From positions 1,418 through 65,417 of the forward strand of contig JAZBPW010000020.1 in the NCBI GenBank assembly GCA_036351795.1: 64,000 bases of DNA, in the 5' to 3' direction. Numbering within the stretch: the first letter of the stretch is position 1; each line of letters begins with the position of its first letter. The notes under the pieces were generated by a model. That model saw only the letters and a program-made list of their open reading frames with translations. It was not told the DNA's origin and did no database searches. This stretch comes from Candidatus Zhuqueibacterota bacterium. Its GTDB lineage: Bacteria; Zhuqueibacterota; Zhuqueibacteria; Thermofontimicrobiales; Thiofontviventaceae. A program made the translations under genes and the position numbers. Below, one piece after another: positions 13,105-49,533 of the stretch.

Positions 13105-13139
13105 TTGTCACTTGAAAAATCATTAAAAACCTGCAATAT

Positions 13140-13192
13140 CCCCTCATCGCCCATCTTTCACAACGGACCGATGAGGGGAAATTTATGCTTGT
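13140..13192 (-). terminator. Probable intrinsic terminator ending the long minus-strand gene chain after dfx.
   Basis: A 10-bp stem (cccctcatcg / cgatgagggg) directly after the dfx stop, followed on the minus strand by 'atattgcaggtttttaatgattttt'. Confidence 0.4.
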
Positions 13193-13194: not shown

Positions 13195-13569
13195 CTATGC
13201 CTTCCACAACCCATGAAGGTTGCAATATTCTCTGGCAGATAGTTTTTCAGCGGTCACTTCGAATGTCGCTTCCGGCGCGTCACCCGGATTCAGGAATTTT
13301 CTGTAAACCGTCCCATCCGCAATGAGTTCAATGAATTCGATATAGTGTTTTTCCTCCATTGGATGAGCCACACTACCCACCTTTACAGTCACGGTAGATC
13401 CCGACTGCTCAATAACCGGCACATGTTTTTCCGTAGCCGCGTCCGTGGTATTTTCATTCAGGAGTGTCATATCCTGACCACAACAGACGAGTGTACCACC
13501 ACCCGCGTGAACCACTTCCACCATGTTCCCGCAGACTTCACATTTATAGATTTGATTAAGTTGTGTCAT
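13195..13569 (-). CDS. dfx: Desulfoferrodoxin (2Fe superoxide reductase).
   Basis: N-terminal desulforedoxin Cys cluster '[22 protein letters not shown]', plus a C-terminal SOR domain with 'HVPV' and 'CNLHGLW'. Confidence 0.9.
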
Positions 13570-13584
13570 TTCAACCTCCTGGAC

Positions 13585-14124
13585 TTAAAATTTCTTGAAT
13601 TTGGTGCTGGGCACGTTGCAGACCGGACAATTTTCCGGGGGATCGCCAATGTGAGTAAATCCGCACACAGGGCAAATATAGACCTCATTTATCTCAATGT
13701 CCTTTCCCTTCACGGCTTCCTTTTTCGCGTTCGCGTACATCTCCGCATGGATCTTTTCCGCCTCAACCGCGTAAAGGATGGACTTTTCTGCGCCCTCCTC
13801 GCCCTGGAGCGTAGCAATCGCGTCATACGCCGGGTACATCTCCTCAACTTCGAATGTTTCACCATCAATACCGGTCTGAAGATTGTCTACCGTTTTCTTG
13901 ATGTAGCCCAGATTCCTCGCATGGTTGGTTGCGTGAACCTGTTCGGCGTAGGCAATCGCCTTCCACAGCCGTGCCAGATTCGGGAAACCCTCTCTCTCGG
14001 CAACATCACTGAAAATAAGATATTTCATATGAGCCTGTGATTCACCGGCAAATGCATCCTGCAAAGCATTCTCTGTCATTTTTCTCATTGTAACTCTCCT
14101 GTGTTTATAATTTTTTAAATACAA
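13585..14124 (-). CDS. rbr: Rubrerythrin.
   Basis: Di-iron ferritin-like domain (ExxH motifs) plus a C-terminal rubredoxin-like 'CPVCGF...CPVC'. Confidence 0.9.
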   Translation of the reverse strand: MYLKNYKHRRVTMRKMTENALQDAFAGESQAHMKYLIFSDVAEREGFPNLARLWKAIAYAEQVHATNHARNLGYIKKTVDNLQTGIDGETFEVEEMYPAYDAIATLQGEEGAEKSILYAVEAEKIHAEMYANAKKEAVKGKDIEINEVYICPVCGFTHIGDPPENCPVCNVPSTKFKKF

Positions 14125-14170
14125 TTGTCCCTGTAAACGTCAATAGCACCACATAGAAAAATATTTATCA

Positions 14171-14683
14171 CTATTCCTCTGACGCTGGAGGAGTGAAACT
14201 GCGCTGAGCCAGCTCTCTGTCGATCATGAGGATGCCATGACCCTTCTCACCAACCATTCGAATCTTCTTGAGGATGGCTAGCATACCTGCCTCCTCTTCA
14301 ACCTGTTCATCGATGTACCAGTGGAGAAAACTCTGTGTGGCGTAGTCATTCTCTTCCTTCGCCAAAGCCATCAGATCATTGATGAGCTTGGTAACTTTCT
14401 GCTCGTGTTTCCAGGCATCATCAAAGACCTCCTCGAGTGACTTGTAGTCGATCTTCGGCTGATCGAGTCCATAAATTTTCACATCATGATTCTGCTCGAC
14501 CAAATAATGATAGAATTTCATCGCATGAAATCTTTCCTCTTGTTCCTGAATGACAAAAAAGTTCGCCATTCCGTCCATGTCGACCGATGAACAATACGCT
14601 GCCATTGCCAGGTACAGATGTCCTGAATACAACTCATTTTTAATTTGCTCGTTAATCATAGCTGCCATTTTGTCAGATATCAT
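14171..14683 (-). CDS. ftn: Ferritin (non-haem, bacterial Ftn).
   Basis: 'INEQIKNELYSGHLYLAMAAYC...EQEERFHAMKFYHY' (ferroxidase centre). Confidence 0.85.
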   Translation of the reverse strand: MISDKMAAMINEQIKNELYSGHLYLAMAAYCSSVDMDGMANFFVIQEQEERFHAMKFYHYLVEQNHDVKIYGLDQPKIDYKSLEEVFDDAWKHEQKVTKLINDLMALAKEENDYATQSFLHWYIDEQVEEEAGMLAILKKIRMVGEKGHGILMIDRELAQRSFTPPASEE

Positions 14684-14710
14684 ATCTACCTCTCTGTAAT
14701 TGTTAATAAT

Positions 14711-15166
14711 TTAATTTATTTTTAAAAATTTCACCAGATCGTCGGGTTCCAGACGAAACCGGTTGCCATGCCCCATAAAAAAACAGTGTGAGCCAATCAG
14801 ATGCACACCCAGTTGCGTGAACGTGATCTCTTGATTCAGTGCTTTGTTGCGGACAACTGCCGTGATCTTGTGATGTAGATTCGGCTCGCCGAAAGGGCAA
14901 GGCAGCATACCGCGAAACCAGTTGACGCGTACCGTGAAGTCACCCAGATCGACATTGCTCTCCAAGCCCTTTTTCCCCTCTTCGATGAAATACTGCATGC
15001 GATCCGCGATGGTCTCCGGCTCAATTCCCAGCTGTGAAAGCGTACGCTTGTCCTCTTCGATAATCTCATGTACATGCCGTGTATCACTGCCGAGGAAGCC
15101 CTCTTTCGTCAGTTTTCCCGGCCTAAAATCTTGATATATTTTTTTTTCTTGCGGCGTCTCTTTCAT
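14711..15166 (-). CDS. Conserved-looking hypothetical protein (Cys/His-containing, 151 aa), placed between nqrF and ferritin.
   Basis: Intact ORF, tightly spaced (27 nt to ftn, 71 nt from nqrF). I recognise no family. Contains 'CPFGEPNLHH' and 'GSHCFFMGHGNRF'. Confidence 0.4.
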   Translation of the reverse strand: MKETPQEKKIYQDFRPGKLTKEGFLGSDTRHVHEIIEEDKRTLSQLGIEPETIADRMQYFIEEGKKGLESNVDLGDFTVRVNWFRGMLPCPFGEPNLHHKITAVVRNKALNQEITFTQLGVHLIGSHCFFMGHGNRFRLEPDDLVKFLKIN

Positions 15167-15237
15167 CTGACATATCCCATGTTTTTGTCACTCTGCGCAC
15201 ACCCGGACTAACGGGTATAACCCGTAGCGGTAAAAAC

Positions 15238-16350
15238 TTAGCCGAACGGATCATAAAAAATCTGATCCATTTTCATTTGATATTTCTTCATGACATTGAT
15301 ACTCGCGTTGATCATCCCCGGGCTACCGCATAAATACCCCTGGCATTTGATCGCATCAATTTTCTGCAGGTACTCTTCCAATGGTTTTGTGATAAGCCCG
15401 GTCTCTCCGTCCCATTCATCTTCAGGTTCGGGTTCTGACAGCGCAGGAACAAAAGTAAAGCCCGGAATCTTCTTTTCGAATTCCGCCATTTCATCCAGGT
15501 AAAAAAGATCCTTTCTAGTCAACGCACCGAAAAAGTATGTGATCTTCCTGTCGATCTTCCGGTGTGCAATATCTTCCAGCAGCGAGACCATTGGCGCCAT
15601 TCCCGAACCACCTGCCACCAGAATCATTTCACTGTCAGATTCTCTGATATAGAAATCTCCCATGGGACCGATAATACGTACGTCATCCCCTTCCTGAAGA
15701 TACTCATGCACCCAGGTTGTGCAGATGCCATCCGGCACCAGACGGATCATCAGATCGACATGAGACTTTTCGAAATTCGGCGAGGACATGGAATACGCCC
15801 TGGAGACACTCTCCTTCACATCAGCGTATGGGTTTGTCTGCAGCTGCACGTATTGTCCTGCCTTGAAATTTATCTCATTCGGCTCGATCAGCGAAAATCG
15901 TACCAACTTAATATCATGCGTAAGATCCCGGATCATTGCCACATTCGTCCGGAACTCATTGATATTAAACAACTCTTCCGGTATTTCTATCTTGATATCC
16001 TGCTTGATTTTGATCTGACAGGATAACCGTATATTCTCCTTCATCTCCTCTGCGGTCAGCAGTGGTTCTTCGGTGGGCAGTATCGGCCCCACACCCTCCA
16101 GAACCTTGCACTTGCAATACCCGCAGGTCCCCCGTCCACCACAGGCCGAAGGAAGAAATATTTTTTGAGAATTGAGCGTCGACAACAAGGTTGCCCCCCC
16201 CTGTGTCCTGAACTCCTCATCATCGTTAATGGTGACATTGCACTCGCCATAGTTCGCGAGATATCTCTCGGCAATCACCAGCAGAATGCTGAGGATTGCA
16301 CTGATAGATGCCATGGAGACGGTCGCAATGATTATCTTATATAACATCAC
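15238..16350 (-). CDS. nqrF: Na+-translocating NADH:quinone oxidoreductase subunit F (TM anchor, 2Fe-2S ferredoxin, FAD and NADH domains).
   Basis: 'SACGGRGTCGYCKCKV' (2Fe-2S), 'RAYSMSS' (FAD), 'GGSGMAPM' (NAD). Full-length alignment to Vibrio NqrF. Confidence 0.9.
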   Translation of the reverse strand: MMLYKIIIATVSMASISAILSILLVIAERYLANYGECNVTINDDEEFRTQGGATLLSTLNSQKIFLPSACGGRGTCGYCKCKVLEGVGPILPTEEPLLTAEEMKENIRLSCQIKIKQDIKIEIPEELFNINEFRTNVAMIRDLTHDIKLVRFSLIEPNEINFKAGQYVQLQTNPYADVKESVSRAYSMSSPNFEKSHVDLMIRLVPDGICTTWVHEYLQEGDDVRIIGPMGDFYIRESDSEMILVAGGSGMAPMVSLLEDIAHRKIDRKITYFFGALTRKDLFYLDEMAEFEKKIPGFTFVPALSEPEPEDEWDGETGLITKPLEEYLQKIDAIKCQGYLCGSPGMINASINVMKKYQMKMDQIFYDPFG

Positions 16351-16358
16351 CCCTCGAA

Positions 16359-16949
16359 TTATTGAATTTGTACAATTCCTGAAAAACCGATGAACGCCAT
16401 CGCCATGATGCCAGTAATAATGAGAACAATGCCGGGTCCTCTCAGGGCCGGCGGAATTTTCTTCTCATTCATGCGCTGGCGGATACCTGCCATCGCCAGG
16501 ATGGCCAACAGCCACCCCAGTCCGCTCCCGGCTCCGAACATGACACTTTGAATGAAATTATACTGCCTGATCACCATGAACAACGACACGCCCAGTATCG
16601 CACAATTGACAGTGATCAAAGGAAGAAAAATGCCCAGATTGATGTACAATACCTCTGAAAATCGTTCGATGACCATCTCCAACAGCTGAACCGCGGAGGC
16701 AATAATAATAATGAATGCAATGAAACGCAAGTACTCCAATCCCAACGGTTCCAGCACATAGAAGAAGACGATGTAGTTCAGCGCCGATGTAACCGTCAAT
16801 ACAAATGTGACTGCCAGCCCCAGACCGAGCGATGTCTTCACCTGTTTGGAAACGGACAGGAATGAACACATCCCCAGAAAATAGACAAGCAGAATATTGC
16901 CTGTGAAGATTGACGCAAAAAATATGACCCAGGGGGAAAGATTTTCCAT
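16359..16949 (-). CDS. nqrE: Na+-NQR subunit E.
   Basis: 196-aa, 6TM NqrE/RnfA-family protein, 'FLGMCSFLSVSK'. Confidence 0.9.
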   Translation of the reverse strand: MENLSPWVIFFASIFTGNILLVYFLGMCSFLSVSKQVKTSLGLGLAVTFVLTVTSALNYIVFFYVLEPLGLEYLRFIAFIIIIASAVQLLEMVIERFSEVLYINLGIFLPLITVNCAILGVSLFMVIRQYNFIQSVMFGAGSGLGWLLAILAMAGIRQRMNEKKIPPALRGPGIVLIITGIMAMAFIGFSGIVQIQ

Positions 16950-16964
16950 CCTGTAAATCTCCTT

Positions 16965-17606
16965 CTATTCAGAATGCGATACTTTCATGGCCGACAGATT
17001 ATTCGCGACCCAGATGAATATCGCCAACATAAAAAAGCCGCCGGGTGCCATGATCATCAATGCCCATTGCACCCATCCCTCTGAGGATCCCATTGCCCGG
17101 AGCAATGGATCCATCACCTGATAGCCGACGATCGTTCCGAATCCCAGCAATTCGCGAAAAAAAGCGATCACCAGAATGACGTACATATACCCGACTCCGG
17201 ACATCACCCCATCCAGAAAAGCCAGCCCCGGCTTGTTCGATGAGGCAAATGCCTCCAGCCGACCCATGATGATGCAGTTGGTGATGATCAGTCCGACGTA
17301 CGGTCCGAGCGCCTTGCTGATATCAGGGACATACGCCTTCAGGACGACATCCACGATCACCACAAAACTCGCAATCACCAGTGTCTGAACCATCATGCGC
17401 ACACGCTGGGGAATGATATCCCTGATGAGCGATATCGTCAGGGAGGAAAAGGCAGTGACAAACGTCAGCCCCAGACCCAGGAATAGCGTATTCATGAATA
17501 TGTTCGTCACTGCGAGTGTCGAACATATTCCGAGAATCTGTACCGTCACAGGATTATTCTTCCACAGATCGTCTTTGATGAGTTCAATTGTTTTGTTATT
17601 CGCCAT
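16965..17606 (-). CDS. nqrD: Na+-NQR subunit D.
   Basis: 213-aa NqrD/RnfE-family protein, 'NPVTVQILGICSTLAVT'. Confidence 0.9.
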   Translation of the reverse strand: MANNKTIELIKDDLWKNNPVTVQILGICSTLAVTNIFMNTLFLGLGLTFVTAFSSLTISLIRDIIPQRVRMMVQTLVIASFVVIVDVVLKAYVPDISKALGPYVGLIITNCIIMGRLEAFASSNKPGLAFLDGVMSGVGYMYVILVIAFFRELLGFGTIVGYQVMDPLLRAMGSSEGWVQWALMIMAPGGFFMLAIFIWVANNLSAMKVSHSE

Positions 17607-17608
17607 AT

Positions 17609-18361
17609 TTATGATTTCACTTTATTGATTGCATTTTCATTCGACTGTATCAGTGCAATATAAAAACGAAGGTCGGTATTCACCATTTTCAGAACGCCAT
17701 CCACTGTTTGCGTCGCTCCCGTGATCGCCTGAAGCTCATTCGTAGACTCTTCCACGTTGCTGCGATTTTTCTGTTTGATCATGATCACCGGTGCCAGCTC
17801 TCTTCCGGATTTAAAAAATCCACTCAGATCGAGATTCCTGAAGAAATATTTGAACTCGGATTCCGTGATCCGGGCTCCCAGTCCGGGTGTCTCCACCTGT
17901 TCCGTGAAATCGATGCCGATCATCCGCTGCAGGTCGGCCGAAATGACACCAAATGCACTGATCGTACCCCACAGTCCTTTTCCACGCATCGGGAAACCGT
18001 ATGATACGATTCCTCCGGTCGAATCTGTTCGCGTGTAAATCGTGATGGAATCACTGACAGACAGAAAACTGCCGGAAAGCAGATCTTTCTGCGCAGCCGT
18101 GACAGGCAAGCGCAGCTCTCTGATTTCAGATTCGATCCGATCGGTAATGAATGATTCAGCATAAGGGATGTTTTCGGTAGTGCTGGCCGGTCCGAGATCG
18201 TGTTCTTCGATATTTGCCGGTAGTATATCAAAGGCATAGAGAATGGATTTGTAGTTGTTCAGCTTCAGGTTTTCGGCGATACGCTCTCTCGACACTTCAT
18301 TGACTGTTGCCAGTGTCGAAATGAACAGGACCGTGACTATCACCATGAATAGGATTGTCAT
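17609..18361 (-). CDS. nqrC: Na+-NQR subunit C (FMN-binding). I moved the start to the internal Met (MTILFMV...), because the 135-codon upstream extension in the ORF track would overlap nqrB.
   Basis: N-terminal TM helix, then an FMN-binding domain with 'ITGATQT' (covalent FMN Thr). The ORF track's extension reads as low-complexity Arg-rich junk. Confidence 0.8.
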   Translation of the reverse strand: MTILFMVIVTVLFISTLATVNEVSRERIAENLKLNNYKSILYAFDILPANIEEHDLGPASTTENIPYAESFITDRIESEIRELRLPVTAAQKDLLSGSFLSVSDSITIYTRTDSTGGIVSYGFPMRGKGLWGTISAFGVISADLQRMIGIDFTEQVETPGLGARITESEFKYFFRNLDLSGFFKSGRELAPVIMIKQKNRSNVEESTNELQAITGATQTVDGVLKMVNTDLRFYIALIQSNENAINKVKS

Positions 18362-18372
18362 CAGACTTTTTT

Positions 18373-19383
18373 TCAAGAGGGCGCCCTCCCTGTCTTGTAT
18401 GCCTTGACAGCGTAGTCGATGATCGGTCCGAACATATTGCCCAGAAGCACGGCAAACGTCAATCCGCCCGAAAAGAGTGCGAAGGATTTGATAATGATCG
18501 TCAATACGGCGATCAATCCGCCGTAAATGTAGCGCGTCAGATCCATCTTTGGTGCGGATACCGGATCGGTGATGATGTAGAAACCACCGTATATCGTCGA
18601 TCCCATCAGCACACCGTAAAATGGATTGGGGACCTTTGCCGGTATGATGAGATGCAGAATGCCGTCGAAAATAAAGTAGGCGACAAAAAAGCTGACGACG
18701 ATCTTCCAGTTGGCCGCTTTCTTGTAGACCAGATAGAGTCCCCCGATCACCAGCAAGAGCGCGCATATCTCTCCCTGAGATCCGGCCCCGATCAAGGTCA
18801 ATTCACCCAGTCTTTCGAACTGCCCGTTGATATTGCCAAGTATCAACTGCAGATAATCCGGCAAGGTGGATGCACCTTCTTTATAAGCGATCTGGGGTGT
18901 GGCCTCGGTAATGGCAGAGAGATAGTCGCTGGTGGAATAAAACTGCCATCTGGCGAATCCAGCCGGGAAATCACTGAAGTTTGCCGCCGGGATCCAGCTG
19001 TTGGTCATGTGGATCGGAAAGGTTATATAGACGAATGCCCTGCCGGTCATCGCCGGATTGAACACATTGAATCCGAATCCACCGAATGCCATCTTGCCGA
19101 ACACAATCCCGAACACGGCACCGATAACGACCATGTACATCGGTAATGTCGGTGGAAGTGAAAGACCGTATAAAAACGCTGTCACCAGGACCGCCTCGGA
19201 AACTTTGCCATTCTGTTTACGCACAAACATCCACTCGGCAATGACGCAACTGACGACAGAGAGCGCCAGCATGGCAAAGCTTCGCCAGCCGAAGAAAAAG
19301 ACTGCCGCAAACACGACCGGAATCAGCGTGTATACGACGGTTCGCATGACTTTCTGTTTTTGAAATTGGATTTTCATCATCAT
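18373..19383 (-). CDS. nqrB: Na+-NQR subunit B (NqrB/RnfD family).
   Basis: 'GGFGFNVFNPAMTGRAF', 'IITDPVSAP'. 336-aa polytopic membrane protein. Confidence 0.85.
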   Translation of the reverse strand: MMMKIQFQKQKVMRTVVYTLIPVVFAAVFFFGWRSFAMLALSVVSCVIAEWMFVRKQNGKVSEAVLVTAFLYGLSLPPTLPMYMVVIGAVFGIVFGKMAFGGFGFNVFNPAMTGRAFVYITFPIHMTNSWIPAANFSDFPAGFARWQFYSTSDYLSAITEATPQIAYKEGASTLPDYLQLILGNINGQFERLGELTLIGAGSQGEICALLLVIGGLYLVYKKAANWKIVVSFFVAYFIFDGILHLIIPAKVPNPFYGVLMGSTIYGGFYIITDPVSAPKMDLTRYIYGGLIAVLTIIIKSFALFSGGLTFAVLLGNMFGPIIDYAVKAYKTGRAPS

Positions 19384-19386
19384 TAT

Positions 19387-19746
19387 CTAGAAAGTTAAGA
19401 TTTCATACCCCTGTTCAATATATCTTCTCGTACTGGGATGGCCGGACATATCATCGCATATCTTCAATCCCTGCTCTTGCGCCGCGGAAAGGGATCCCAT
19501 CTTGGACGCGCATGCCTTGCATACGCAATCGAAAAGCCCGAGATCCTTTACTTTGTGATAGAGATTTGAAAACGGCTTGCTGGTATCCTTCAATTCCGCG
19601 ATCTGTTTGGTCGCAGACCCTTCCATGATGACTTTAACGTCATATCCGTTTTCGTGCAGATCGATGGCATTCAACAGGACATGCACGAAACACATAACTT
19701 CACCATTAAACGCGAATAAAGCGATCTTTTTCGTTTTGTAATCCAC
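19387..19746 (-). CDS. Small DsrE/DsrF-like (sulfur-relay fold) protein, immediately upstream of nqrB with a 3-nt gap.
   Basis: 'KIALFAFNGE...HVLLNAIDL...YDVKVIMEGSA' resembles the DsrE/DsrF family. Conserved Cys pair 'CVCKAC'. Confidence 0.55.
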   Translation of the reverse strand: MDYKTKKIALFAFNGEVMCFVHVLLNAIDLHENGYDVKVIMEGSATKQIAELKDTSKPFSNLYHKVKDLGLFDCVCKACASKMGSLSAAQEQGLKICDDMSGHPSTRRYIEQGYEILTF

Positions 19747-19749
19747 AGA

Positions 19750-21834
19750 TTAATATGTCTCCTTATTGGTAAATTGCAATGTATGATAGAAATGATCAAA
19801 CTCTTCGACAGAGGTGAAGGGCGCTTTACAACTGAAATTTTCACAGACAAACACTTTGACGTCGCCACCCGGCAAAACCTTGCCGTTCACCAGTGGAAAG
19901 AGAATATGTTCTTTCTCGCGAATGCTTCCATCCGCGTACGCCAAAACTTTATTGGGCAGATATTTGATCTGAATGGCTGATTTAAATTCTGTGAATGTCG
20001 CAGCGTCCCGTGGACCACTGAGAACAATCTCTTTTGCGGAATGAGTCAGGAAGTCTAGCGCGCAGAGCAGATGCGAAAATCCGAACGGGTAATTCTCGAT
20101 CTTGCCGGCATACATTCGGAAGGCTTCCGACGCTTTTTCCATTAGAATGTGATCACCCGTAAACCGGCCCAATCGTACCAGGCTGTGCACTGCGGCAGAA
20201 TTCCCGGATGGCACCGGATTGTCATATGGATTTCTTGTGCGCAACAGGATATCTGATTGTTCCATTTCCGTGAAGTAAAAACCTCCTTCTTCCTCATCCC
20301 AAAATTTGGCCAGCATACTGTCATTCAACTCGACAGCTGTGCTGAGATGGCTGAGTTCGAAAGATGTCTCATAAAGATCGAGCAGTGCTTCGATCAATAA
20401 TGCGTAATCCGATAGATAGCCATTAATTTGCGCCCTTCCAGCGCGCCATGTTCTCTTCAGTGATTTATCAATATATAGATTTTGCAATAAAAAATCAACC
20501 GCTTTTTGAGCCGCTTCAAGGTACATTTGCTCACCAAGCACCTGATGCGCCTTGCACAAAGCGGATATCATCATCGCGTTCCATGATGTGAGTATCTTAT
20601 CGTCCGTCCCCGGAGGCACTCGCTGAGATCGCCGGGACAATAGTACCGCTCTCGCATCGGCCATGCGCTGCGACAGATCACTTTCATCGATCGCATACTC
20701 TTTGGCGACAGGCGCATTGGACCTTCTCTGATGCAAAATGTTGACGCCTTCCCAATTACCTCCTCTTGAGACTCCGTAGAAATCCATGAAGAGTTTCGCA
20801 GGCTCTTCTCCCAGAAGGTCCACCACTTCGCTTGCATCCCACACGTAATATTTCCCTTCCTCTCCCTCACTGTCCGCATCCTGGGAAGAATAGAAACCGC
20901 CCTTCGGAGATGTCATCTCATCCAGGACGTATTTCAGTGTCGATCTCGCGATTTCCGTGTAAATTGTCTTTTTTGTGAGTTGAAAAGCCTCAAGATAGGT
21001 GCTGGTCAACAGAGCATTGTCATACAGCATTTTTTCGAAGTGTGGCACCAGCCAGCGCTCGTCAGTAGAGTAGCGATGAAATCCACCACCGAGATGATCG
21101 TATATGCCACCGCGCGCCATTTCGTCAAGTGTTTTTTCTACCATACTCAGCGCGCTACGCTCACCTGTATGAAAATAGTAGCGAAGCAGGAATGCCAATT
21201 CCATCGGCTGGGGAAATTTGGGCGCCTTTCCAAAACCACCATTTCGTTCATCGAATTGACGAACGGCGGTGTCAAAGGCCGGCTTCCATAAATGCATGCC
21301 GATCTCGCCGGCACCTGTACCCGGACTCTCCAGCTGCATCAACTGTTCAGTCAGTTCATCCGCGCTCTTCATCAGTTCGTCATTCCTATCCTTCCAGACA
21401 TCGACAATTTGAAGTAGCATATTTTTAAATCCAGGCCGCCCCCAGCGATCGTCAGGCGGAAAATATGTACCCCCGAAAAAGGGTTTGCGCAGAGGCGTCA
21501 GCCATATGGACAGAGGCCAGCCGCCGCTGCCGGTCATCATCTGTACGGCATTCATATAGATATTGTCGATATCGGGCCGCTCTTCGCGATCCACTTTAAT
21601 GGAGACGAAATGTTCATTGAGAATAGACGCAATCTCTTCGTTTTGGAAGGATTCATGCTCCATCACATGGCACCAATGACAGGCGGAATAGCCGATTGAG
21701 AGGAAGATGGGCTTGTTCAATTCGCGAGCCAGCCTCAATGCGTCATCTCCCCACGGATACCAGTTCACTGGATTGTGGGCGTGTTGCAACAGGTACGGAC
21801 TCGTTTCATTGATCAAATGATTGGTGTATTTCAA
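19750..21834 (-). CDS. yyaL: Thioredoxin-domain protein of the YyaL/DUF255 family (N-terminal thioredoxin fold plus an alpha/alpha-toroid domain).
   Basis: '[51 protein letters not shown]' (the signature CHWCH). Confidence 0.85.
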
Positions 21835-21935
21835 TTTTGTTTGCGACTCCTCACAATCGATTCAGGTATATGCGAAAGTTAATATAGCGATCAGGACAAT
21901 ATAGCCTGATGATTTCATCAATTTACAGGCTGTGA

Positions 21936-22166
21936 TCAGAGCTTTTTTCTGACATATGCCCTGTATTCATCCTTGCTGGTTTCAATTCCCAGAAATTCAT
22001 GTCCTGTCATTTTGCACCAGTTGGGCATATCCTCAACGATCCCCTCGTCATCTGATACCACTTCAAGCGTTTCTCCGACAGCCAGCTCTTTGATCTTTTC
22101 AGCCGTTTTGATAATCGGCATGGGACAATAAAGTCCAAGGCAATCTATTGTCATATCGGTTTTCAT
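21936..22166 (-). CDS. tusA: TusA-like sulfur-carrier protein.
   Basis: 76 aa with 'CLGLYCPMP' (the CPxP motif). Confidence 0.8.
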   Translation of the reverse strand: MKTDMTIDCLGLYCPMPIIKTAEKIKELAVGETLEVVSDDEGIVEDMPNWCKMTGHEFLGIETSKDEYRAYVRKKL

Positions 22167-22188
22167 GAAAAAGTGATCACTCCCTGTC

Positions 22189-22680
22189 CTAGATAAATAG
22201 TGTGGTACTGCTTTCCTGCGAGATTGCTAAAAACGACGCCACTCCGGCGACATTGTCCACTTCCGGGATCAGCGACTCTTTCGGGATCCCCATCACATTC
22301 ATGCTCGTGCTGCAGGCGGTGAAATTTACACCCAGTGATTTGGCTGTCGTCAGCATTTCGGACAAAGACGGCAACTTTGATTTCTTCATGATCTTTTTCA
22401 TCATTGCCGCGCCGGCGCCAGCCATGTTCATCCTGGAAATTGGTCTCTTATCCGGACCGGGTTTCACCATGACATTGAAAAGCCTTCTCAGGAGGTCGTT
22501 CTTCCCGCGCTTCGAGCCCTTTTCCTGCAATAGTTTCAACCCCCAGAACGTAAAAAACATATTCACCCTCATTCCAGAAGCGGCTGCTCCGGTAGCGATG
22601 GTCAGTGCCGCGAAGATCTTGTCCAGATCGCCGCTGAACACGATCAGAGCGATGGAATTCTTGTCGCCGTTATCATTCAT
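22189..22680 (-). CDS. DsrE/DsrF-like family protein.
   Basis: 'SIALIVFSGDLDK...FFTFWGLKLL...FTACSTSMNVMGI'. 163 aa. Overlaps the iscU stop by 8 nt. Confidence 0.6.
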   Translation of the reverse strand: MNDNGDKNSIALIVFSGDLDKIFAALTIATGAAASGMRVNMFFTFWGLKLLQEKGSKRGKNDLLRRLFNVMVKPGPDKRPISRMNMAGAGAAMMKKIMKKSKLPSLSEMLTTAKSLGVNFTACSTSMNVMGIPKESLIPEVDNVAGVASFLAISQESSTTLFI

Positions 22681-23113
22681 CGTGAGCTTCGTCGTGTTCC
22701 ATCTCTTCTTCAGATTTCAGCTTGATGGGCGAAGGGACACCCTTCTTCTTGTAATAGTCATCCAGAGCGCTCTGTAGCGCCTGCTCCGCCAGCACCGAAC
22801 AGTGCCGCTTCACCTTTGGTAGACCACCGAGCTCCTGAGTGACCTGTTCATTGGTGATCTCCAGGGCTTCATCTATTTTCTTTCCCTTGATCAGCTCGGT
22901 TGCCATACTGCTGGTGGCAATTGCCGCACCGCAGCCGAATGTCTTGAATTTGGCGTCGACAATCACATCATCCTTCACCTTGATATACATCTGCATGATA
23001 TCGCCGCACGACGGATTGCCAACCGTACCGATGCCATCGGGATCTTCAATTTCACCGACGTTACGCGGATTCATGAAATGATCCATCACTTTTTCACTGT
23101 ATGGTGTATTCAT
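22673..23113 (-). CDS. iscU: Fe-S cluster scaffold NifU/IscU.
   Basis: 'GNPSCGDIMQMYIKV', 'FKTFGCGAAIATSS', 'KRHCSVLAEQAL' (three conserved Cys). Confidence 0.9.
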   Translation of the reverse strand: MNTPYSEKVMDHFMNPRNVGEIEDPDGIGTVGNPSCGDIMQMYIKVKDDVIVDAKFKTFGCGAAIATSSMATELIKGKKIDEALEITNEQVTQELGGLPKVKRHCSVLAEQALQSALDDYYKKKGVPSPIKLKSEEEMEHDEAHDE

Positions 23114-23133
23114 ATTCGATCCTTTTCTTGATT

Positions 23134-24297
23134 CTATTTTTTATATAATGGAGACATCATCCGCAATCGTTCAACGATCGGCGGCAGTTTCTCTACGAGC
23201 AAATCGATCTCGTTTTTCGTATTGTCAATACCAAGCGTAAACAATATTGTTCCATTGGCAATGGCGTGAGAAACGCCGATCGCAAGAAGAACATGCGACG
23301 CTTTCAAGGCCCGCGATGTACACGCGGAACCACTCGACGCCAGAATATTGAAAGTGCCCAACATCAGGAGAATCGACTCACCCTCGATGTATTCAAATCC
23401 AAAATTGACATTGTTCGGCAGCCGCAACGTGCGGTGGCCATGCAGACTCACATGTTCGATTTTGCTCTCCAGAGACTCGATGAGATGGTCTCGAAGAGAT
23501 GTGACAAAATCGACGCGCATGGTCATATCCCGCGCCGCGATTTCAGCCGCTGTACCCATACCCACGATTCCCGGCACATTCTCCGTCCCGGCGCGACGTC
23601 CGTTTTCCTGCGTTCCTCCATCTATCAATGGATTGATGCGCGACCCTTTCCTGATGTATAGCGCGGCAGACCCTTTGGGTCCATAAAAAGTAGTTCCCGC
23701 AAGACTCATGAAATCCAGATTCATATCCTTTACATCGACAGGAACGCTGCCAACAGTCTGCACGCCATCCGAATGAAAGAGGATATCCCGCGCCTTCACA
23801 ATCCCGGCGATCTCCCGTATGGGTTCAATCGTGCCGATCTCGTGATTCGCATGCATAATGGACACGAGAATCGTGTCATCCCTGAGCGCCTTCTTCACAT
23901 CATCCGGGTCTAACAGGCCATTTGAATCGACCGGGACTTTTGTGATTTCGAATCCCAGTTTTTCGAGCGATCTGGCAGCCTGTAATACTGAAAAATGCTC
24001 GATTTCCGAGACGACGATATGTCTGCCTTTCTTGCCCAGTGCGAAGGCGACGCCCTTCAATGCAAAGTTATTCGATTCACTTCCGCTCGACGTGAAGATA
24101 ATCTCCTCTGGCGAGGCATTGATCAGGGCTGCGACCTGCGCTCTGGCTTTGTCTATCGCATCTTTGATCTTCTGTCCCTCAAGATGCAGACTCGAAGGAT
24201 TTCCGTACAGGTCCCTGATGTAAGGCTGCATGCTCTTCGCGACTTCGTCCAGAGGCCGAGTTGCAGAGGCATGGTCAAAATTTATTATTTCACTCAT
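23134..24297 (-). CDS. NifS/IscS-family cysteine desulfurase homologue with the PLP Schiff-base Lys replaced. 'SGHK(I/L)YGPKG' has become 'AGTTFYGPKG'. The catalytic Cys loop (SSGSACTS) is intact.
   Basis: Full-length alignment to IscS. TSSGSESNN, the His and the Asp are all retained. I read the H-K to T-T change directly from the DNA: the reverse complement of 23677-23706 reads 'agtcttgcgggaactactttttatggaccc'. Confidence 0.85.
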   Translation of the reverse strand: MSEIINFDHASATRPLDEVAKSMQPYIRDLYGNPSSLHLEGQKIKDAIDKARAQVAALINASPEEIIFTSSGSESNNFALKGVAFALGKKGRHIVVSEIEHFSVLQAARSLEKLGFEITKVPVDSNGLLDPDDVKKALRDDTILVSIMHANHEIGTIEPIREIAGIVKARDILFHSDGVQTVGSVPVDVKDMNLDFMSLAGTTFYGPKGSAALYIRKGSRINPLIDGGTQENGRRAGTENVPGIVGMGTAAEIAARDMTMRVDFVTSLRDHLIESLESKIEHVSLHGHRTLRLPNNVNFGFEYIEGESILLMLGTFNILASSGSACTSRALKASHVLLAIGVSHAIANGTILFTLGIDNTKNEIDLLVEKLPPIVERLRMMSPLYKK

Positions 24298-24306
24298 ATA
24301 TTTATC

Positions 24307-25017
24307 TCACTGATTGACTTTATTTTGAATAAAGGTGATGGCCCTCAGGGGACGGCAGTCCTTCGGACATACCTTCACGCAGTTCGCATGCTTATCACAG
24401 TCGAACACACCATTCTCACGGCTGCTCATCTCCTTCCGCGATGCCAGCTCCGCATCCCTCGGGTCAAACACCTGCTTATAGATTTGAATAGAGACTGCCG
24501 GACCTATGAACTCCGGCGAATCATCTACCTTCGGACAATCCGCATAACAGCATCCGCATTTAATGCAATCGGCAGAACGATTCAATTGGTCGAGGTGTAT
24601 TTTATCCAGATGCGCTTCATATGTCAAGCGTTCGTCCGCCAGATCTTTTTCCCGGACAAGCCAGGGCATGGTTTTTTCTATCTCCTGCCACATCGTTCTC
24701 TGATCCACCACCAGATCTTTGATCACATCAAAATGCGTAAGGGGCTCCAGTGTGACGACGTCATTCTCTTTCAGCATATCATTCACCTGGGTCTTGCACG
24801 CCAATCGTGCCTGTCCGTTGATCTTGATCGCACATGTACCGCATATTGCGCCACGGCACGAATAACGGTAAGCCAATGTCGCATCCTGCTCATCATGGAT
24901 CTGATGCAGCAGGTCGAGAACCGACATTCCCGGTTTGAATTGAGCCGTATATTCCACCTGCGCGCCTGTTTTCTCTTTTTCCGGATTGTATCTGTAGATC
25001 TTGACTTTAAATTCCAT
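24307..25017 (-). CDS. sdhB: Succinate dehydrogenase / fumarate reductase iron-sulfur subunit.
   Basis: 2Fe-2S 'CRGAICGTCAIKING', 4Fe-4S 'CIKCGCCYADCP', 3Fe-4S 'CVKVCPKDCRP'. Confidence 0.9.
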   Translation of the reverse strand: MEFKVKIYRYNPEKEKTGAQVEYTAQFKPGMSVLDLLHQIHDEQDATLAYRYSCRGAICGTCAIKINGQARLACKTQVNDMLKENDVVTLEPLTHFDVIKDLVVDQRTMWQEIEKTMPWLVREKDLADERLTYEAHLDKIHLDQLNRSADCIKCGCCYADCPKVDDSPEFIGPAVSIQIYKQVFDPRDAELASRKEMSSRENGVFDCDKHANCVKVCPKDCRPLRAITFIQNKVNQ

Positions 25018-25080
25018 CCTGAAAATCCCTTGTTGTTATTTCACTAAAAGGAAAAAATCAATAATAAATTTTGATTGAAA

Positions 25081-26778
25081 TCAGTACTTGATCTCTTTCA
25101 AAGGTTCGATATTCTCTATCACGACATCCTTGTAGCTGAGCACGGGTTTGCCGTTTTCACCCCGTCTGACAACTGTATGCTTCAGGAATTCCGCGTTATT
25201 CATCTCAGGATAGTCATCGCGATGATGCGCGCCACGACTCTCTCTTCTCGCGATAGCGCCCTGGGCACAGATGTGCGCCAGCTCCAGCATATTGCCCAGC
25301 TCGAGCACGCGGATCAGATCGAGATTGTACACCCTGCCCTTGTCTCCGACGACCACTGACTGATATCGCTTCTTCAATTCTTCGATGCTATCCAGCCCCT
25401 CTTTCATCAGCTTCTCATTGCGAAAAATACCAAAACATTTGATCATCGCTTTTTCCATATCATCACGGATGTGAGCGGCATTTTCACCCTTGCTGCGACC
25501 CATCAATTCCGCCAGTCGCTGCTCCTCCTGCTTCAGCGACGATTCGCTGTAATTCAGGACACTGTTATTTCTCGCGAATTTCAAAGCCTGTACACCGGCA
25601 TGAAAGCCGAAAACAACCGTCTCGAGCAGAGAATTCCCGCCCAGCCGATTCGCGCCATGCACACTGACGCATGCCGCTTCGCCTGCGGCATAGACGCCCG
25701 GTACGTCGCTCTCTGTCCGCACGTTCACATCAATGCCACCCATGGTGTAATGCACAGTCGGCCGGATCGGTATGGGTTCATGCACCGGATCGACACCTGC
25801 GAAATGGATCGCGATCTCGCGGATCTGCGGCAGGCGCGTCTTGATCTTCTCCTCGCCGAGATGACGGAGGTCGAGATGCACATATTCATCGTTCACACCA
25901 CGACCATTCTGTATTTCCAGATGAATGGAACGTGCAACAAAATCGCGGGGTGCGAGCTCCATGAATTTCGGCGCATAATTTTTCATAAAGCGCTCGCCCT
26001 TGTTGTTGATCAAATAGCCACCCTCTCCCCTCGCGCCCTCGGTGATCAAAATCCCGTTGAGCAGGCCGGTGGGATGGATCTGAAAAAATTCAAAATCTTC
26101 GATTGGAAGCCCGGCATTGTACGCAAGCGCCACGCCATCTCCGGTATTGATCAGTGCATTGGAGCTCTGACCGTACACGCGCCCGGCGCCTCCGGTTGCA
26201 ATGACAAGCGCCTTGCTGCGGATGAAATTGAACTCGCCGGTCAGTATGTCGAATGCCGTCAGACCTCTGTATGCACCATCCTCGATGACAAGTGATGTGA
26301 CAAACCACTCCCAATAGATGGTGATCTTGTGCCTCATCGCCTGTTCGTACAGCGTGTGAAGCAGATTATGCCCTGTCTTGTCTGCGACGAAACATGTCCG
26401 GTGGCGACTCTGGCCACCGAAAGCCCGCTGCGCGACAGTGCCATCTTCATTCCGTGTGAACAACGCCCCATATCGATCGAGCCGGGAGATGGCATCCTTG
26501 GCTTCGCTGCATAATACACGCGCGGCATCCTGATCCGCAAGAAACCATGCGCCCTTCACGGTGTCGTACATGTGGCCCTGCCAACTATCATCGAAACGAA
26601 GCGCTGCGTTAATGCCTCCCTGGGCAGCGCCGGAATGAGACCGGACGGGATGCACTTTGGTCACAATCGCAACATCCGCATTCGCATCCTCCTCTTTCGC
26701 CTGTATCGCTGCGCTGAGACCGGCCAATCCGGCTCCCATGATGATAATATCGTGCGTTTTATGCGCTGTCATCTGCAT
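25081..26778 (-). CDS. sdhA: Succinate dehydrogenase / fumarate reductase flavoprotein subunit.
   Basis: 'IIIMGAGLAGLSAA', 'RSHSGAAQGGINAA' (FAD His), and a conserved C-terminal domain. Confidence 0.9.
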   Translation of the reverse strand: MQMTAHKTHDIIIMGAGLAGLSAAIQAKEEDANADVAIVTKVHPVRSHSGAAQGGINAALRFDDSWQGHMYDTVKGAWFLADQDAARVLCSEAKDAISRLDRYGALFTRNEDGTVAQRAFGGQSRHRTCFVADKTGHNLLHTLYEQAMRHKITIYWEWFVTSLVIEDGAYRGLTAFDILTGEFNFIRSKALVIATGGAGRVYGQSSNALINTGDGVALAYNAGLPIEDFEFFQIHPTGLLNGILITEGARGEGGYLINNKGERFMKNYAPKFMELAPRDFVARSIHLEIQNGRGVNDEYVHLDLRHLGEEKIKTRLPQIREIAIHFAGVDPVHEPIPIRPTVHYTMGGIDVNVRTESDVPGVYAAGEAACVSVHGANRLGGNSLLETVVFGFHAGVQALKFARNNSVLNYSESSLKQEEQRLAELMGRSKGENAAHIRDDMEKAMIKCFGIFRNEKLMKEGLDSIEELKKRYQSVVVGDKGRVYNLDLIRVLELGNMLELAHICAQGAIARRESRGAHHRDDYPEMNNAEFLKHTVVRRGENGKPVLSYKDVVIENIEPLKEIKY

Positions 26779-26825
26779 TCAACAATCCCTTTCTTGCAAT
26801 TTGTACTTATTTTCTGTTTGTAATC

Positions 26826-26854
26826 AATATAAATTAAAAACATACCAAAATCAA
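26826..26854 (-). promoter_or_regulatory. Candidate sigma70-type promoter for the sdhA-led minus-strand chain.
   Basis: On the minus strand: TTGATT, 17 nt, TATATT, about 40 nt upstream of the sdhA ATG. An AAGGGA SD lies nearby. Confidence 0.3.
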
Positions 26855-27039
26855 GTGTTTTCCGTAGCCATTCGCGCAATTTTTATATTGCGTATCATCA
26901 GAATCGCTATCGCAATATCAGTGTAAATATTAAGTTAATAAAATTCCGCTCAAAATGCAATTCTTTTATTTAATTCAACGGACACATGATGATTTTCCGC
27001 TTTCACAACGCCATGAGCGACCATGTAAAATGGTGTGCA

Positions 27040-27082
27040 ATGAGAAGGTAAAAATGAAGGTGCATAAATGAATATGCACCGC
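27040..27082 (-). terminator. Intrinsic terminator of the PDZ-protein gene.
   Basis: An 8-bp stem (GGTGCATA / TATGCACC) with a 6-nt loop, followed on the minus strand by 'TTCATTTTTACC'. Confidence 0.45.
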
Positions 27083-29603: not shown

Positions 29604-31418
29604 ATGGAGGATCAGTCAATGATCAGAAAGAAGGCAGGCGCTGTTTTCGCCATTTTATTCATCCTATCAACAACAGTTGCATTCGGACAGAGTCCTTTTG
29701 AACTGAATGTACTGGAAGTCGAAACCCAAATCTCGTTTGACAAGGTACATCAGGGTTCGAAATTTGATCTCGCAATCATTGTCAATGTGGATGAGGAGTT
29801 TCACATCAATGCGAATCAACCGACCGAGGAATTCCTGATTCCGACAGAGGTCACGTTTGATCCAGTGGACAGACTCTCTTTCGGCAAGGTGATCTATCCC
29901 GACCCCCATCTCGTTAAATTCGCTTTTTCAGACCAGCCACTGGCAGTCTACGAAAAGAAATTCGTCATCTTTGCCGAGGTCTTTCTCGCTGACGATTTCC
30001 CGCGGGGAGAACTGGAACTATCCGGGCAACTGGGATATCAGGCATGTACCGATCAGAACTGCTACGCCCCGAGTGAGGAACCGTTTTCAATAAAGATTGA
30101 CGTCGTAGATGCGGGGGTGGAGATCATCCCCTCGAACAAAGATATCTTCGAGCAGCTCGAGGCGCATTCGCAGGAAGAAGCGCTGGACTTCACATCGGAC
30201 GAGCTGCGGGCAAAGGCTGTTCTCGAGAAAGGTCTTCCATACGCAATCATCGCTTTTTTCCTTTTCGGCCTCGCATTGAACCTGACGCCATGTGTCTATC
30301 CGGTCATTCCAATCACTGTCGGATATTTTGGCTCTCAAAGTGAGAAAAGGAAAGGATCCTCTTTTGTCAGCGCACTCTTTTATGTGATCGGAATAGCCAT
30401 TATCTTCTCGATCCTTGGTTTGATTTCAGGACTCGCAGGCAAGCAGTGGGGCTTTCTCTTTCAGAACCCATGGTTTGTGATCACCATATCTCTCATCATA
30501 CTCGCCATGGCTGCCAGCATGTTCGGGGCATTCGAGATCACCGTGCCTTCCTCGCTGATGAATCGCTTTGGTGGTGCCCGTGAGGGCGTTGTCGGTGCCT
30601 TCATCATGGGGCTCACTGTCGGCGTGGTTATTGCGCCTTGTGCCGCAGGCATCATCATCGGCCTTGTCGGTCTTGTTGCCAAACTGGGAATCGTTGCCAA
30701 AGGGACGCTTCTCTTCTTTATCATGGGGCTTGGACTCGGCGTGCCTTACCTGATTCTGGCGACATTTTCCGGACTCCTCAATAAGATTCCAAAGTCAGGC
30801 ATGTGGATGGTTTGGGTACGTAAATTGTTTGGTGTGCTTCTCATCGGCGTCGCTCTCTATTTTCTGGCACCTCAGATCAAGCGAGTACACGATCTTCAGG
30901 GTTATATGTTTGGAATACTGGCGATTTTCGGCGGACTCTTGCTCGGATTTCTCGATCATGCACCTGGCTATACAAAAAATTTCAAGTTCGGCAGGGCTAT
31001 TTTCGGCATTCTGGTTCTGCTGTTCGGCATCTTCATGACCCACAAAGCGATTCATACCGAACCACCGGCTATCGACTGGATCCATTACCAGAACGAGACA
31101 GTCGAAGATCTCATTGCACAGGACAAACCGGTGATCATGGATTTCTACGCCGACTGGTGCGCACCGTGCAAGCAGATGGACAATGAGACTTTTAAGAATG
31201 ATATGGTTGTCAATAAAACCGATGCATTTACAATGCTCAAAGTGGACTGTACATCACCCAATGAGGATACTAAATCATTGATGAAGGCCTTTGAGGTGAC
31301 CGGCATGCCGACATTCATTTTTCTGAACAGTCAAGGTGAGGAGATCCGGGAACTTCGCGCCGTGGGATATGTGGCTTACGACAGTTTCCTGGATAAAATG
31401 GAAAAAGCGCTGGAGTGA
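29604..31418 (+). CDS. dsbD: Thiol:disulfide interchange protein DsbD (alpha domain, TM core and C-terminal thioredoxin).
   Basis: Signal peptide. The TM core resembles cytochrome c biogenesis CcdA/DsbD. C-terminal 'DFYADWCAPCK'. Confidence 0.85.
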   Translation: MEDQSMIRKKAGAVFAILFILSTTVAFGQSPFELNVLEVETQISFDKVHQGSKFDLAIIVNVDEEFHINANQPTEEFLIPTEVTFDPVDRLSFGKVIYPDPHLVKFAFSDQPLAVYEKKFVIFAEVFLADDFPRGELELSGQLGYQACTDQNCYAPSEEPFSIKIDVVDAGVEIIPSNKDIFEQLEAHSQEEALDFTSDELRAKAVLEKGLPYAIIAFFLFGLALNLTPCVYPVIPITVGYFGSQSEKRKGSSFVSALFYVIGIAIIFSILGLISGLAGKQWGFLFQNPWFVITISLIILAMAASMFGAFEITVPSSLMNRFGGAREGVVGAFIMGLTVGVVIAPCAAGIIIGLVGLVAKLGIVAKGTLLFFIMGLGLGVPYLILATFSGLLNKIPKSGMWMVWVRKLFGVLLIGVALYFLAPQIKRVHDLQGYMFGILAIFGGLLLGFLDHAPGYTKNFKFGRAIFGILVLLFGIFMTHKAIHTEPPAIDWIHYQNETVEDLIAQDKPVIMDFYADWCAPCKQMDNETFKNDMVVNKTDAFTMLKVDCTSPNEDTKSLMKAFEVTGMPTFIFLNSQGEEIRELRAVGYVAYDSFLDKMEKALE

Positions 31419-31460
31419 CCTTAAGAACAGCAATCTGAAAAATCCAATTTATAATCTGAA

Positions 31461-31507
31461 GAATTCAGAACAAAACTGCCATCCCTGTGAAAATCAGTGG
31501 ATGGCAG
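31461..31507 (-). terminator. Intrinsic terminator, mainly for the minus-strand SSF transporter gene and possibly bidirectional for dsbD.
   Basis: A 9-bp stem (ctgccatcc / ggatggcag), followed on the minus strand by 'ttttgttctgaattctt'. Confidence 0.45.
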
Positions 31508-31518
31508 TGATACATGAA

Positions 31519-48461: not shown

Positions 48462-48464
48462 ATA

Positions 48465-49510: not shown

Positions 49511-49533
49511 ACTGATTTATTAAGGAGACTATA

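Follow-up and report, generated by a model that had tools for sequence, protein, structure and literature searches.

Gene clusters encoding an Nqr-type pump without its NqrA subunit (nqrBCDEF) have been known since 2014. They have been reported from Thermotoga (now Pseudothermotoga) thermarum and lettingae, Clostridium ultunense and 'Ca. Izimaplasma', and the electron acceptor of the complex was stated to be unknown (PMC4148951, PMC5924567, PMC6256511); an evolutionary survey of Nqr left this form untreated (PMC4014512). NqrA itself holds no cofactor and has no assigned function, quinone being reduced at NqrB (PMC12174285). We analysed a 64,000-nucleotide (nt) stretch, the window, from a Candidatus Zhuqueibacterota bacterium (contig JAZBPW010000020.1, assembly GCA_036351795.1), in which an nqrBCDEF set is embedded in a run of 17 consecutive minus-strand open reading frames (ORFs) at 13195-26778. 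Their order is sdhA-sdhB-nifS*-iscU-DrsE_2-tusA-yyaL-small DsrE-like-nqrB-C-D-E-F-hyp151-ferritin-rubrerythrin-desulfoferrodoxin, where nifS* is a nifS-like gene whose product lacks the pyridoxal phosphate (PLP) lysine and hyp151 encodes a protein of 151 amino acids (aa). A preliminary description of this DNA had listed 17 genes on one strand in this order, spaced by -8 to 101 nt. The ORF listing bears out the order and the coordinates, and recomputation of the gaps agrees (in gene order 63, 9, 20, -8, 22, 101, 3, 3, 11, 2, 15, 8, 71, 27, 46 and 15 nt).

Comparison with related loci showed that the run consists of modules that are each conserved on their own: module A (SdhAB, NifS*, IscU, sulfur carriers and YyaL), module B (the pump and hyp151, to which the small DsrE-like protein may be added) and module C (ferritin, rubrerythrin and desulfoferrodoxin). 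The supercluster is thus a lineage-restricted mosaic, and the NqrA-less Nqr within it is already known. Three features appear to be new: the invariant linkage of hyp151, a member of a large family without annotation, to the pump genes of five phyla, a bacterial clade of lysine-less NifS lying between sdhAB and iscU-DrsE_2-tusA, and the recurrent embedding of both in oxygen-defence clusters. We lean towards reading the run as an island specific to candidate division KSB1, probably co-regulated and serving both defence against oxygen and reactive oxygen species (ROS) and the maintenance of Fe-S clusters. We found no description of the hyp151 family or of the supercluster in the literature.

The NqrA-less operon and its conserved sixth gene

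Domains were called by Pfam and NCBIfam scans, and these upheld all domain assignments of the preliminary description. The membrane subunit B (18373..19383; minus strand, as for all genes of the run) passed the RnfD model TIGR01946 with 226.5 bits (cutoff 207). Against the NqrB model TIGR01937 it reached only 165 bits (cutoff 350), aligning to model positions 107-409, so that the N-terminal extension of NqrB is missing. Among solved structures it likewise matched RnfD (130 bits) better than Vibrio cholerae NqrB (104 bits). Its flavinylation threonine lies in 'ITEAT', aligned to 'TGAT'. The FMN-binding subunit of NqrC/RnfG type (17609..18361; PF04205) carries the motif 'ITGAT', and its best NCBIfam matches are NqrC models, all under cutoff. 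NqrD (16965..17606) passed NF006777 with 243.5 bits (cutoff 235), and the NqrE/RnfA-type subunit (16359..16949) fell just under the cutoff of both models, with 222.5 bits for nqrE (cutoff 247.6) and 217.3 bits for rnfA. Cysteines in 'GICS' and 'NCII' of NqrD and in 'GMCS' and 'NCAI' of NqrE together make up the four intramembrane cysteines. NqrF (15238..16350) scored 293.6 bits against TIGR01941 (cutoff 295) and has the Pfam domains Fer2, FAD_binding_6 and NAD_binding_1; its transmembrane helix and its 2Fe-2S, FAD and NADH motifs are readable. No NqrA, RnfC or RnfB was found in the cluster or among the 44 window ORFs scanned for domains.

Since the B subunit passes as RnfD and subunits C to F score as Nqr-like, module B is, as judged from its sequences, a Rnf/Nqr hybrid with NqrF as its input module. 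It shares with the V. cholerae NqrABCDEF complex (7XK3/8A1U) homologous C, D, E and F subunits in the same order, the NqrF motifs, the D/E cysteines and the flavinylation threonine motifs in B and C. It differs in lacking NqrA, in a B subunit that is ~100 residues shorter at the N terminus and scores better as RnfD, and in having most of its subunits under the NCBIfam equivalog cutoffs. With the Rnf complex (RnfABCDGE; 7ZC6, 8AHX) it shares the D-G-E-A membrane core and a B subunit that passes the RnfD cutoff, but it has neither RnfC nor RnfB and takes its electrons in through the NADH-oxidising NqrF, so that ferredoxin:NAD+ chemistry is unexpected. Module B may have NADH:quinone activity and may translocate Na+. 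We had considered the missing NqrA as proof of an acceptor other than quinone, and dropped this because quinone is reduced at NqrB.

To survey the context of the operon, genomes were scanned with aligned B-subunit sequences, which gave 80 loci. Neighbour clustering revealed no NqrA- or RnfC-type gene conserved upstream of nqrB in any of them. Nor is NqrA concealed upstream in other lineages, as the upstream ORFs at 10 phylum-diverse loci encode unrelated proteins, and RnfB, like RnfC, was not found upstream in related loci. The preliminary description was therefore right to call the Nqr NqrA-less, though the form was already in the literature. One scanned locus, from a metagenome-assembled genome (MAG) of a Caldithrix sp. 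(L013), has only an NqrB-like gene (61% identity), and nqrC-F were not found within 10 kb on either side.

Clustering of all ORFs lying within 6 kb of the nqr operon yielded one dominant family, that of hyp151 (14711..15166). Among the loci with enough downstream sequence to be testable (~58), hyp151 follows nqrF in 34/34 from KSB1-like lineages, KSB3/Moduliflexus, Fibrobacterota, Spirochaetota and WOR-3, on the same strand as the nqr genes and after a median gap of ~13 nt; in one of these lineages' loci (L009) it is displaced by ~1.4 kb, and in two (L069, L081) there is overlap between the ORF coordinates. None of the 24 testable loci has it among those of Tissierellia/Clostridia (Firmicutes), Planctomycetota and Desulfobacterota. 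The operon nqrBCDEF plus hyp151 is the only part of the run that is kept across phyla. The NqrA-less clusters reported previously have the same five-gene architecture, and the scanned Firmicutes loci belong with them; no sixth gene is mentioned for those clusters, whereas the KSB1, KSB3, Fibrobacterota, Spirochaetota and WOR-3 operons carry hyp151. The preliminary description had listed the gene as 'hyp' and had missed its status as a conserved sixth gene of the operon.

The hyp151 protein matches MEE4310442.1, from a MAG of candidate division KSB1, with 100% identity; the best matches of the other cluster proteins are likewise to MAGs of KSB1/Zhuqueibacterota type, and exact-sequence look-ups of three window proteins returned no record. 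Pfam and NCBIfam gave no match for hyp151, even at E <=1, and it has neither a sequence match in the PDB nor a Foldseek match. Its AlphaFold2 model is confident (mean pLDDT 94.5). A profile search collected 1632 cluster representatives. An alignment of 117 members (median identity 34%) shows conservation of the polar residues D28, R30, D39, C90, K100, H122, H127 and R138, a set compatible with a metal or cofactor site. A few products of the family are fused to, or read through into, a rubrerythrin, rubredoxin, nitroreductase or peroxiredoxin-like domain. At least in the rubredoxin case, the product seems to arise by reading through into a neighbouring gene, yet even so it documents adjacency. 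Other members hold the domain in tandem: three copies in P0291 (885 aa), two in P0371 (385 aa) and three matching stretches in P0419 (2506 aa), from which it follows that the domain also exists outside the nqr context. Within the operon, hyp151 may stand in structurally for NqrA, may serve as an output or docking subunit, or may help in maturation of the complex as a maturation factor. The last possibility also fits its position, since in Vibrio it is apbE and nqrM that follow nqrF (PMC12174285), where here there is an unrelated 151-aa gene.

Separability of the modules and their defence-gene neighbours

Gene order was compared through three sets of context look-ups, made with the small DsrE-like protein, with the B-subunit scan described above and with a metagenome scan for NifS* (28 loci). 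All 17 genes in unchanged order were found in L001, at 83-98% amino-acid identity. The order is kept with insertions in L004 (=L012), where a Fur-family gene, cydA, cydB and a rubrerythrin gene lie between yyaL and the small DsrE-like gene, and in L009, whose insertions include a rubrerythrin gene. Beyond these, the blocks part company. The order sdhA-sdhB-nifS*-iscU-DrsE_2-tusA(-yyaL) recurs in L088, L091, L093 and L094, and module A occurs without nqr in L090, L094 and L095; L094 has module A and a small DsrE-like gene with no nqr within 6 kb. Conversely, nqrBCDEF-hyp151 stands without module A in most loci. As the blocks are found apart in relatives, the run is not one obligate machine. The linkage is all the same non-random: divergent nifS-iscU-(tusA)-DrsE_2 genes lie directly upstream of nqrB in L019, L034, L038 and L039, and nifS-iscU in L027. 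The NifS of these five loci is 39-43% identical, and the lysine is kept in 3/5. Conservation of the whole order, which the preliminary description had asked about, thus holds in near relatives only.

Module C comprises a non-haem ferritin (14171..14683; PF00210, 133.9 bits), a rubrerythrin (13585..14124; PF02915 and PF21349) and a desulfoferrodoxin, or superoxide reductase (13195..13569; TIGR00320, 216.8 bits against a cutoff of 146.9). We searched for defence genes of this kind around modules A and B with seeds for ferritin, three rubrerythrin types, desulfoferrodoxin (Dfx), peroxiredoxin, nitroreductase, Fur, CydA/B, Fe- and Ni-superoxide dismutase (SOD) and flavodiiron protein (FDP), taken from the window and from relatives, the latter checked with Pfam. 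At least one defence gene lay within 3 kb of the nqr operon in 18/30 KSB1-like loci, as against 3/48 loci of other lineages. In the KSB1-like loci their density fell from 2.5 per 10 kb close to the operon to 0.85 per 10 kb in the distal flanks; in other lineages it was 0.14 per 10 kb, 18-fold lower than in the KSB1-like ones.

The layouts vary from locus to locus. Examples are FDP-nqr-hyp-rbr-rbr (L017), with the FDP gene directly upstream of nqrB, nqr-hyp-ZIP-NiSOD-FDP-cydAB-sdhA (L018) and nqr-hyp-fur-rbr-prx (L011, L014). Such differences argue against a single inherited layout. Defence genes also accompany module A where nqr is absent: fur-cydAB, prx and rbr follow it in L090, L095 and L091, the first two having the form nifS*-iscU-tusA. 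No such association was seen around the nqr operon of KSB3/Moduliflexus, Spirochaetota or Fibrobacterota. Being confined to KSB1-like lineages, the association is a property of those lineages and not of the whole pump family.

The lysine-less NifS and its neighbours in module A

Among solved structures, one of the best matches of NifS* (23134..24297; Pfam Aminotran_5) is the IscS of Archaeoglobus fulgidus (4EB5, 375 bits), a lysine-less protein without desulfurase activity, one of whose cysteines serves as ligand to the IscU-bound cluster (PMC7585200). NifS* scored 501 bits against TIGR03402, under the cutoff of 530.75. The motif 'SGHK' has become 'AGTT', so that the Schiff-base lysine is gone, and the Cys loop 'SSGSACTS' is retained; the asterisk given to the gene in the preliminary description was well placed. 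The metagenome scan added eight loci at 71-95% identity, and the lysine is missing in every one. With the window, L001, L004 and L009, loss is 12/12 in this clade (>=71% identity), the substitutes being Thr, Asn, Pro, Ser or Ala, while the homologs from the scan at <=52% identity all retain 'HK'. NifS* resembles the A. fulgidus IscS-IscU pair (4EB5/4EB7) in the lost lysine, the Cys loop and the adjoining IscU gene. It differs in that Asp replaces Lys in A. fulgidus, and in being bacterial and placed between sdhAB and the TusA/DrsE_2 carriers. By this analogy, NifS* is probably a non-desulfurase partner of, and cluster ligand for, IscU.

The IscU/NifU-type scaffold (22673..23113; Pfam NifU_N) passed the NifU_clost model TIGR03419 with 206.6 bits (cutoff 187.9), and its three Cys ligands lie in 'PSCGD', 'FGCGA' and 'HCSV'. 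The next gene overlaps it by 8 nt and encodes a DsrE2-like protein of the DrsE_2 family (22189..22680; PF13686, 155.8 bits) that reached 61 bits against the DsrE2 equivalog NF047629 (cutoff 210). It is followed by a TusA-family sulfur carrier (21936..22166; PF01206, 93 bits) with the Cys-Pro motif 'GLYCPMP'. No rhodanese or Dsr/Hdr partner lies near these two genes. Sulfur for IscU would probably come from sulfide or by way of the TusA and DrsE_2 carriers. The YyaL/DUF255 protein (19750..21834; PF03190, 264 bits), made up of a thioredoxin fold with the CxxC motif 'CHWC' and an alpha/alpha-barrel domain, matches the solved structure 7TKV, which has no assigned function.

At the head of the run, SdhA/FrdA (25081..26778, 565 aa) scored 749.9 bits against TIGR01812 (cutoff 567.3) and contains the Pfam domains FAD_binding_2 and Succ_DH_flav_C. 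Its translation shows both the His motif for covalent FAD attachment, 'RSHSGAAQGG', and the HPTG, Arg and His motifs of catalysis. The iron-sulfur subunit SdhB/FrdB (24307..25017, 236 aa) scored 213.3 bits against TIGR00384 (cutoff 88), with Fer2_3 and Fer4 domains and three readable Cys cluster motifs. No membrane anchor of the SdhC/D, FrdC or SdhE type is present in the operon or was detected among the scanned window ORFs, and within that scope SdhAB is anchorless, as the preliminary description had it. SdhAB is accordingly, as far as its motifs tell, a catalytically intact fumarate reductase/succinate dehydrogenase that is locally anchorless.

The small DsrE-like protein (19387..19746), of a ~115-aa family with 706 homologs, matched PF02635 marginally (23.2 bits, threshold 22.7). 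Its residues C19, C74, C76, C79, H22 and H103 are each at least 95% conserved in the family, unlike in classical DsrE. Four cysteines and two histidines suggest a metal or Fe-S site and not a single persulfide cysteine, and the label of sulfur carrier is uncertain for this protein. Its genes are standalone in WOR-3, Thorarchaeota, Thermoplasmatota and Acidobacteriota, and an obligate partnership with Nqr was ruled out on the ground that they stand alone in WOR-3, in Thorarchaeota and in another lineage.

Boundaries of the run and competing readings

The run is bounded by hairpin terminators at both ends, and no U-tract terminator occurs inside it. Downstream of dfx, a terminator-like hairpin with T-runs (13115..13179, minus strand) backs the terminator proposed in the preliminary description: the 90-nt spacer folds with -31.4 kcal/mol and has a long stem (13139-13179) followed by 'GGTTTTTAATGATTTTT'. 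A pattern scan had overlooked it because of its long loop. Upstream of sdhA lies an AT-rich non-coding region (26779..27058, minus strand), presumably a promoter/operator, and before it a PDZ gene has a hairpin terminator of its own (27059-27080). This region is ~93% identical to its counterpart in L001, the sole relative that has it, and the two are too close for footprinting. The single promoter that had been placed upstream of sdhA carries no weight, as matches to a sigma-70-like promoter occur in the region at chance level (21 observed, 20.6 expected). An Rfam scan of the window returned nothing at gathering threshold. The 71-nt spacer between nqrF and hyp151 (15167-15237, minus strand), which is ~13 nt in most relatives, forms a hairpin of -21.4 kcal/mol without a U-tract and may be a lineage-specific processing or attenuation element. 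From the short gaps and the end hairpins, the run is probably co-transcribed or co-regulated.

Several features of the surrounding DNA were recorded. At ~30000-33000 the GC skew flips from about -0.1 to positive, with the cumulative minimum there, and most genes are on the minus strand before this boundary and on the plus strand after it. The boundary could be related to replication or transcription. A DsbD-type thiol:disulfide transporter with DsbD_N, DsbD_TM and thioredoxin domains is encoded at 29604-31418 on the plus strand, ~3 kb upstream of the cluster, which adds a further thiol-redox gene to the surroundings. On the other side of the cluster, an 884-aa protein (5846-8500, minus strand) combines a weak N-terminal membrane domain like that of cytochrome bd subunit I with c-type cytochrome domains (cbb3-type monohaem and MtrC/c7/c3-like multihaem); the adjoining gene (8500-9579) has no family match. 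A multihaem cytochrome is likewise encoded downstream of the cluster of L004. Two adjacent plus-strand genes at 48389-50961 encode subunits of a 2-oxoacid:ferredoxin oxidoreductase and 58138-59814 (plus strand) a full-length formiminotransferase-cyclodeaminase; both are consistent with an anaerobic, amino-acid-fermenting lifestyle.

In the oxidative-stress operons and regulons of anaerobes, regulators of PerR/Fur type control rubrerythrin, desulfoferrodoxin, flavodiiron protein and cytochrome bd. The clusters described here have the same effector genes, and a Fur-family regulator is embedded in those of relatives. To our knowledge, such operons do not usually include an Rnf/Nqr-type pump, an Fe-S assembly pair or SdhAB. 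For a defence and maintenance island, we infer the following routes. The pump would oxidise NADH at NqrF and pass electrons through the D/E cluster and the flavins of C and B to menaquinone/cytochrome bd or to a protein partner, so that on exposure to O2 module B would deliver NADH-derived reducing power to a quinol oxidase or to detoxifying enzymes. In module C, desulfoferrodoxin and rubrerythrin would remove superoxide and peroxide and ferritin would sequester the iron released, while NifS*/IscU of module A, with TusA and DrsE_2, would rebuild Fe-S clusters. SdhAB would be a client or an electron sink of the island. Oxidative-stress control by the Rnf family has a precedent in the Rsx complex of Escherichia coli, which reduces SoxR (PMC12174285).

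A number of points weigh against this reading. The role of SdhAB in a defence island is left unexplained. The evidence for co-transcription is indirect (short gaps and end hairpins), the sigma-70 scan is uninformative, and the window yielded neither a Fur/PerR gene nor an operator that could be recognised. Nearly all genes from 20 to 29398 are on the minus strand, so that the shared orientation extends over ~29 kb, is not specific to the cluster and is weaker evidence than it appears. The defence genes were found with few seeds, of which the nitroreductase and peroxiredoxin-like families are broad. Several of the hyp151 fusions are single sequences, and at least P0356 looks like a read-through artefact. 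Given its absence around the nqr operons of the other lineages named above, the defence association may reflect lineage history and not pump function.

A second reading is that the run has no functional unity and consists of co-directional housekeeping operons that are adjacent through recent common ancestry. This is consistent with the finding of the whole order only at high identity (L001), with the common strand over ~29 kb, and with gaps of 63, 101 and 71 nt which, together with the nqrF-hyp151 hairpin, permit separate transcripts. It is nevertheless unlikely, since defence genes are repeatedly found beside both modules in varied layouts, 18-fold enriched over other lineages and 3-fold over distal flanks, and since the divergent nifS-iscU-DrsE_2 genes upstream of nqrB recur in another lineage. 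The long housekeeping super-operon put forward in the preliminary description fits poorly.

Somewhat less likely again is that nqrBCDEF-hyp151 forms a third, undescribed branch of the Rnf/Nqr family. On this account hyp151, which may be a Cys/His/Asp metalloprotein, would take the place of NqrA or RnfC on the RnfD-like subunit and act as the output or docking module passing NADH-derived electrons to detoxifying enzymes or SdhAB. The recipients considered are rubrerythrin, rubredoxin/desulfoferrodoxin, peroxiredoxin, nitroreductase, flavodiiron protein or the anchorless SdhAB. If it were true, detoxification of oxygen species would allow anaerobes to store energy in a Na+ gradient at the same time.

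We consider it improbable that the locus encodes a quinone-independent NADH:fumarate oxidoreductase, in which SdhAB would occupy the site of NqrA or RnfC on the RnfD-like subunit and receive electrons directly from the riboflavin, so that fumarate reduction would be coupled to Na+ export. Compatible with it are the lack of an anchor gene in the operon, the RnfD-like B subunit without the N-terminal region of NqrB, and a precedent in Prevotella bryantii, where NQR cooperates with QFR (quinol:fumarate reductase) in NADH:fumarate oxidoreduction (PMC8516057, PMC10739449). The likeness is that of an Nqr-type pump and a fumarate reductase in one anaerobic electron route; P. bryantii differs in having a six-subunit NQR, a membrane-anchored QFR and a menaquinone link, where NqrA and the Frd anchor are missing from the present locus. 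In a Desulfobacteraceae MAG (L084, 6579-16905), moreover, nqrBCDEF is directly followed by sdhA and sdhB, and L018 has sdhA in the same cluster. But sdhAB lies near nqr in only ~4 independent arrangements among the ~58 testable loci, hyp151 and not SdhAB is the ever-present partner, and an anchor gene could sit elsewhere in the genome. The sdhAB of L084 also has its own GltD-like NAD(P)H/Fe-S subunit (Fer4_20/Pyr_redox_2/Fer4), which points to a soluble enzyme. A thioredoxin-reductase-like flavoprotein gene follows the GltD-like gene in that locus, and genes for a malate dehydrogenase and an aromatic amino-acid lyase lie divergently upstream.

Equally doubtful is a single redox/sulfur-trafficking pathway of all 17 products, such as NADH- or Na+-driven persulfide handling with fumarate as electron sink: tight gaps between unlike genes (sdhB-nifS* 9 nt, iscU/DrsE_2 -8 nt, yyaL-DsrE-like-nqrB 3 nt each), sdhAB-nifS*-iscU-DrsE_2-tusA in seven loci (the window, L001, L004, L088, L091, L093 and L094) and nifS-iscU-DrsE_2 upstream of nqrB in a second lineage speak for it, but module A occurs without nqr in L090, L094 and L095 and nqr-hyp151 without module A in most loci, the junctions in L004 and L009 are filled by cydAB, fur and rbr rather than by sulfur genes, and other phyla have the small DsrE-like protein as a standalone. 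The undescribed redox/sulfur-trafficking module suggested in the preliminary description likewise fits poorly.

Taken together, these comparisons lead us back to an island of separable modules, most likely serving oxygen defence and Fe-S maintenance. The presence of hyp151 in five mostly uncultured or Gram-negative phyla is a new lead on the NqrA-less pump, and its linkage, with the defence-gene setting in KSB1, leads to a hypothesis on the destination of the pump's electrons that can be tested. The lysine-less bacterial clade of NifS takes the idea of a non-desulfurase IscS beyond archaea and raises the question of the route by which sulfur reaches IscU. If the functional link is true, it would bear on how nominal anaerobes survive O2 and on the evolution of Nqr from Rnf.

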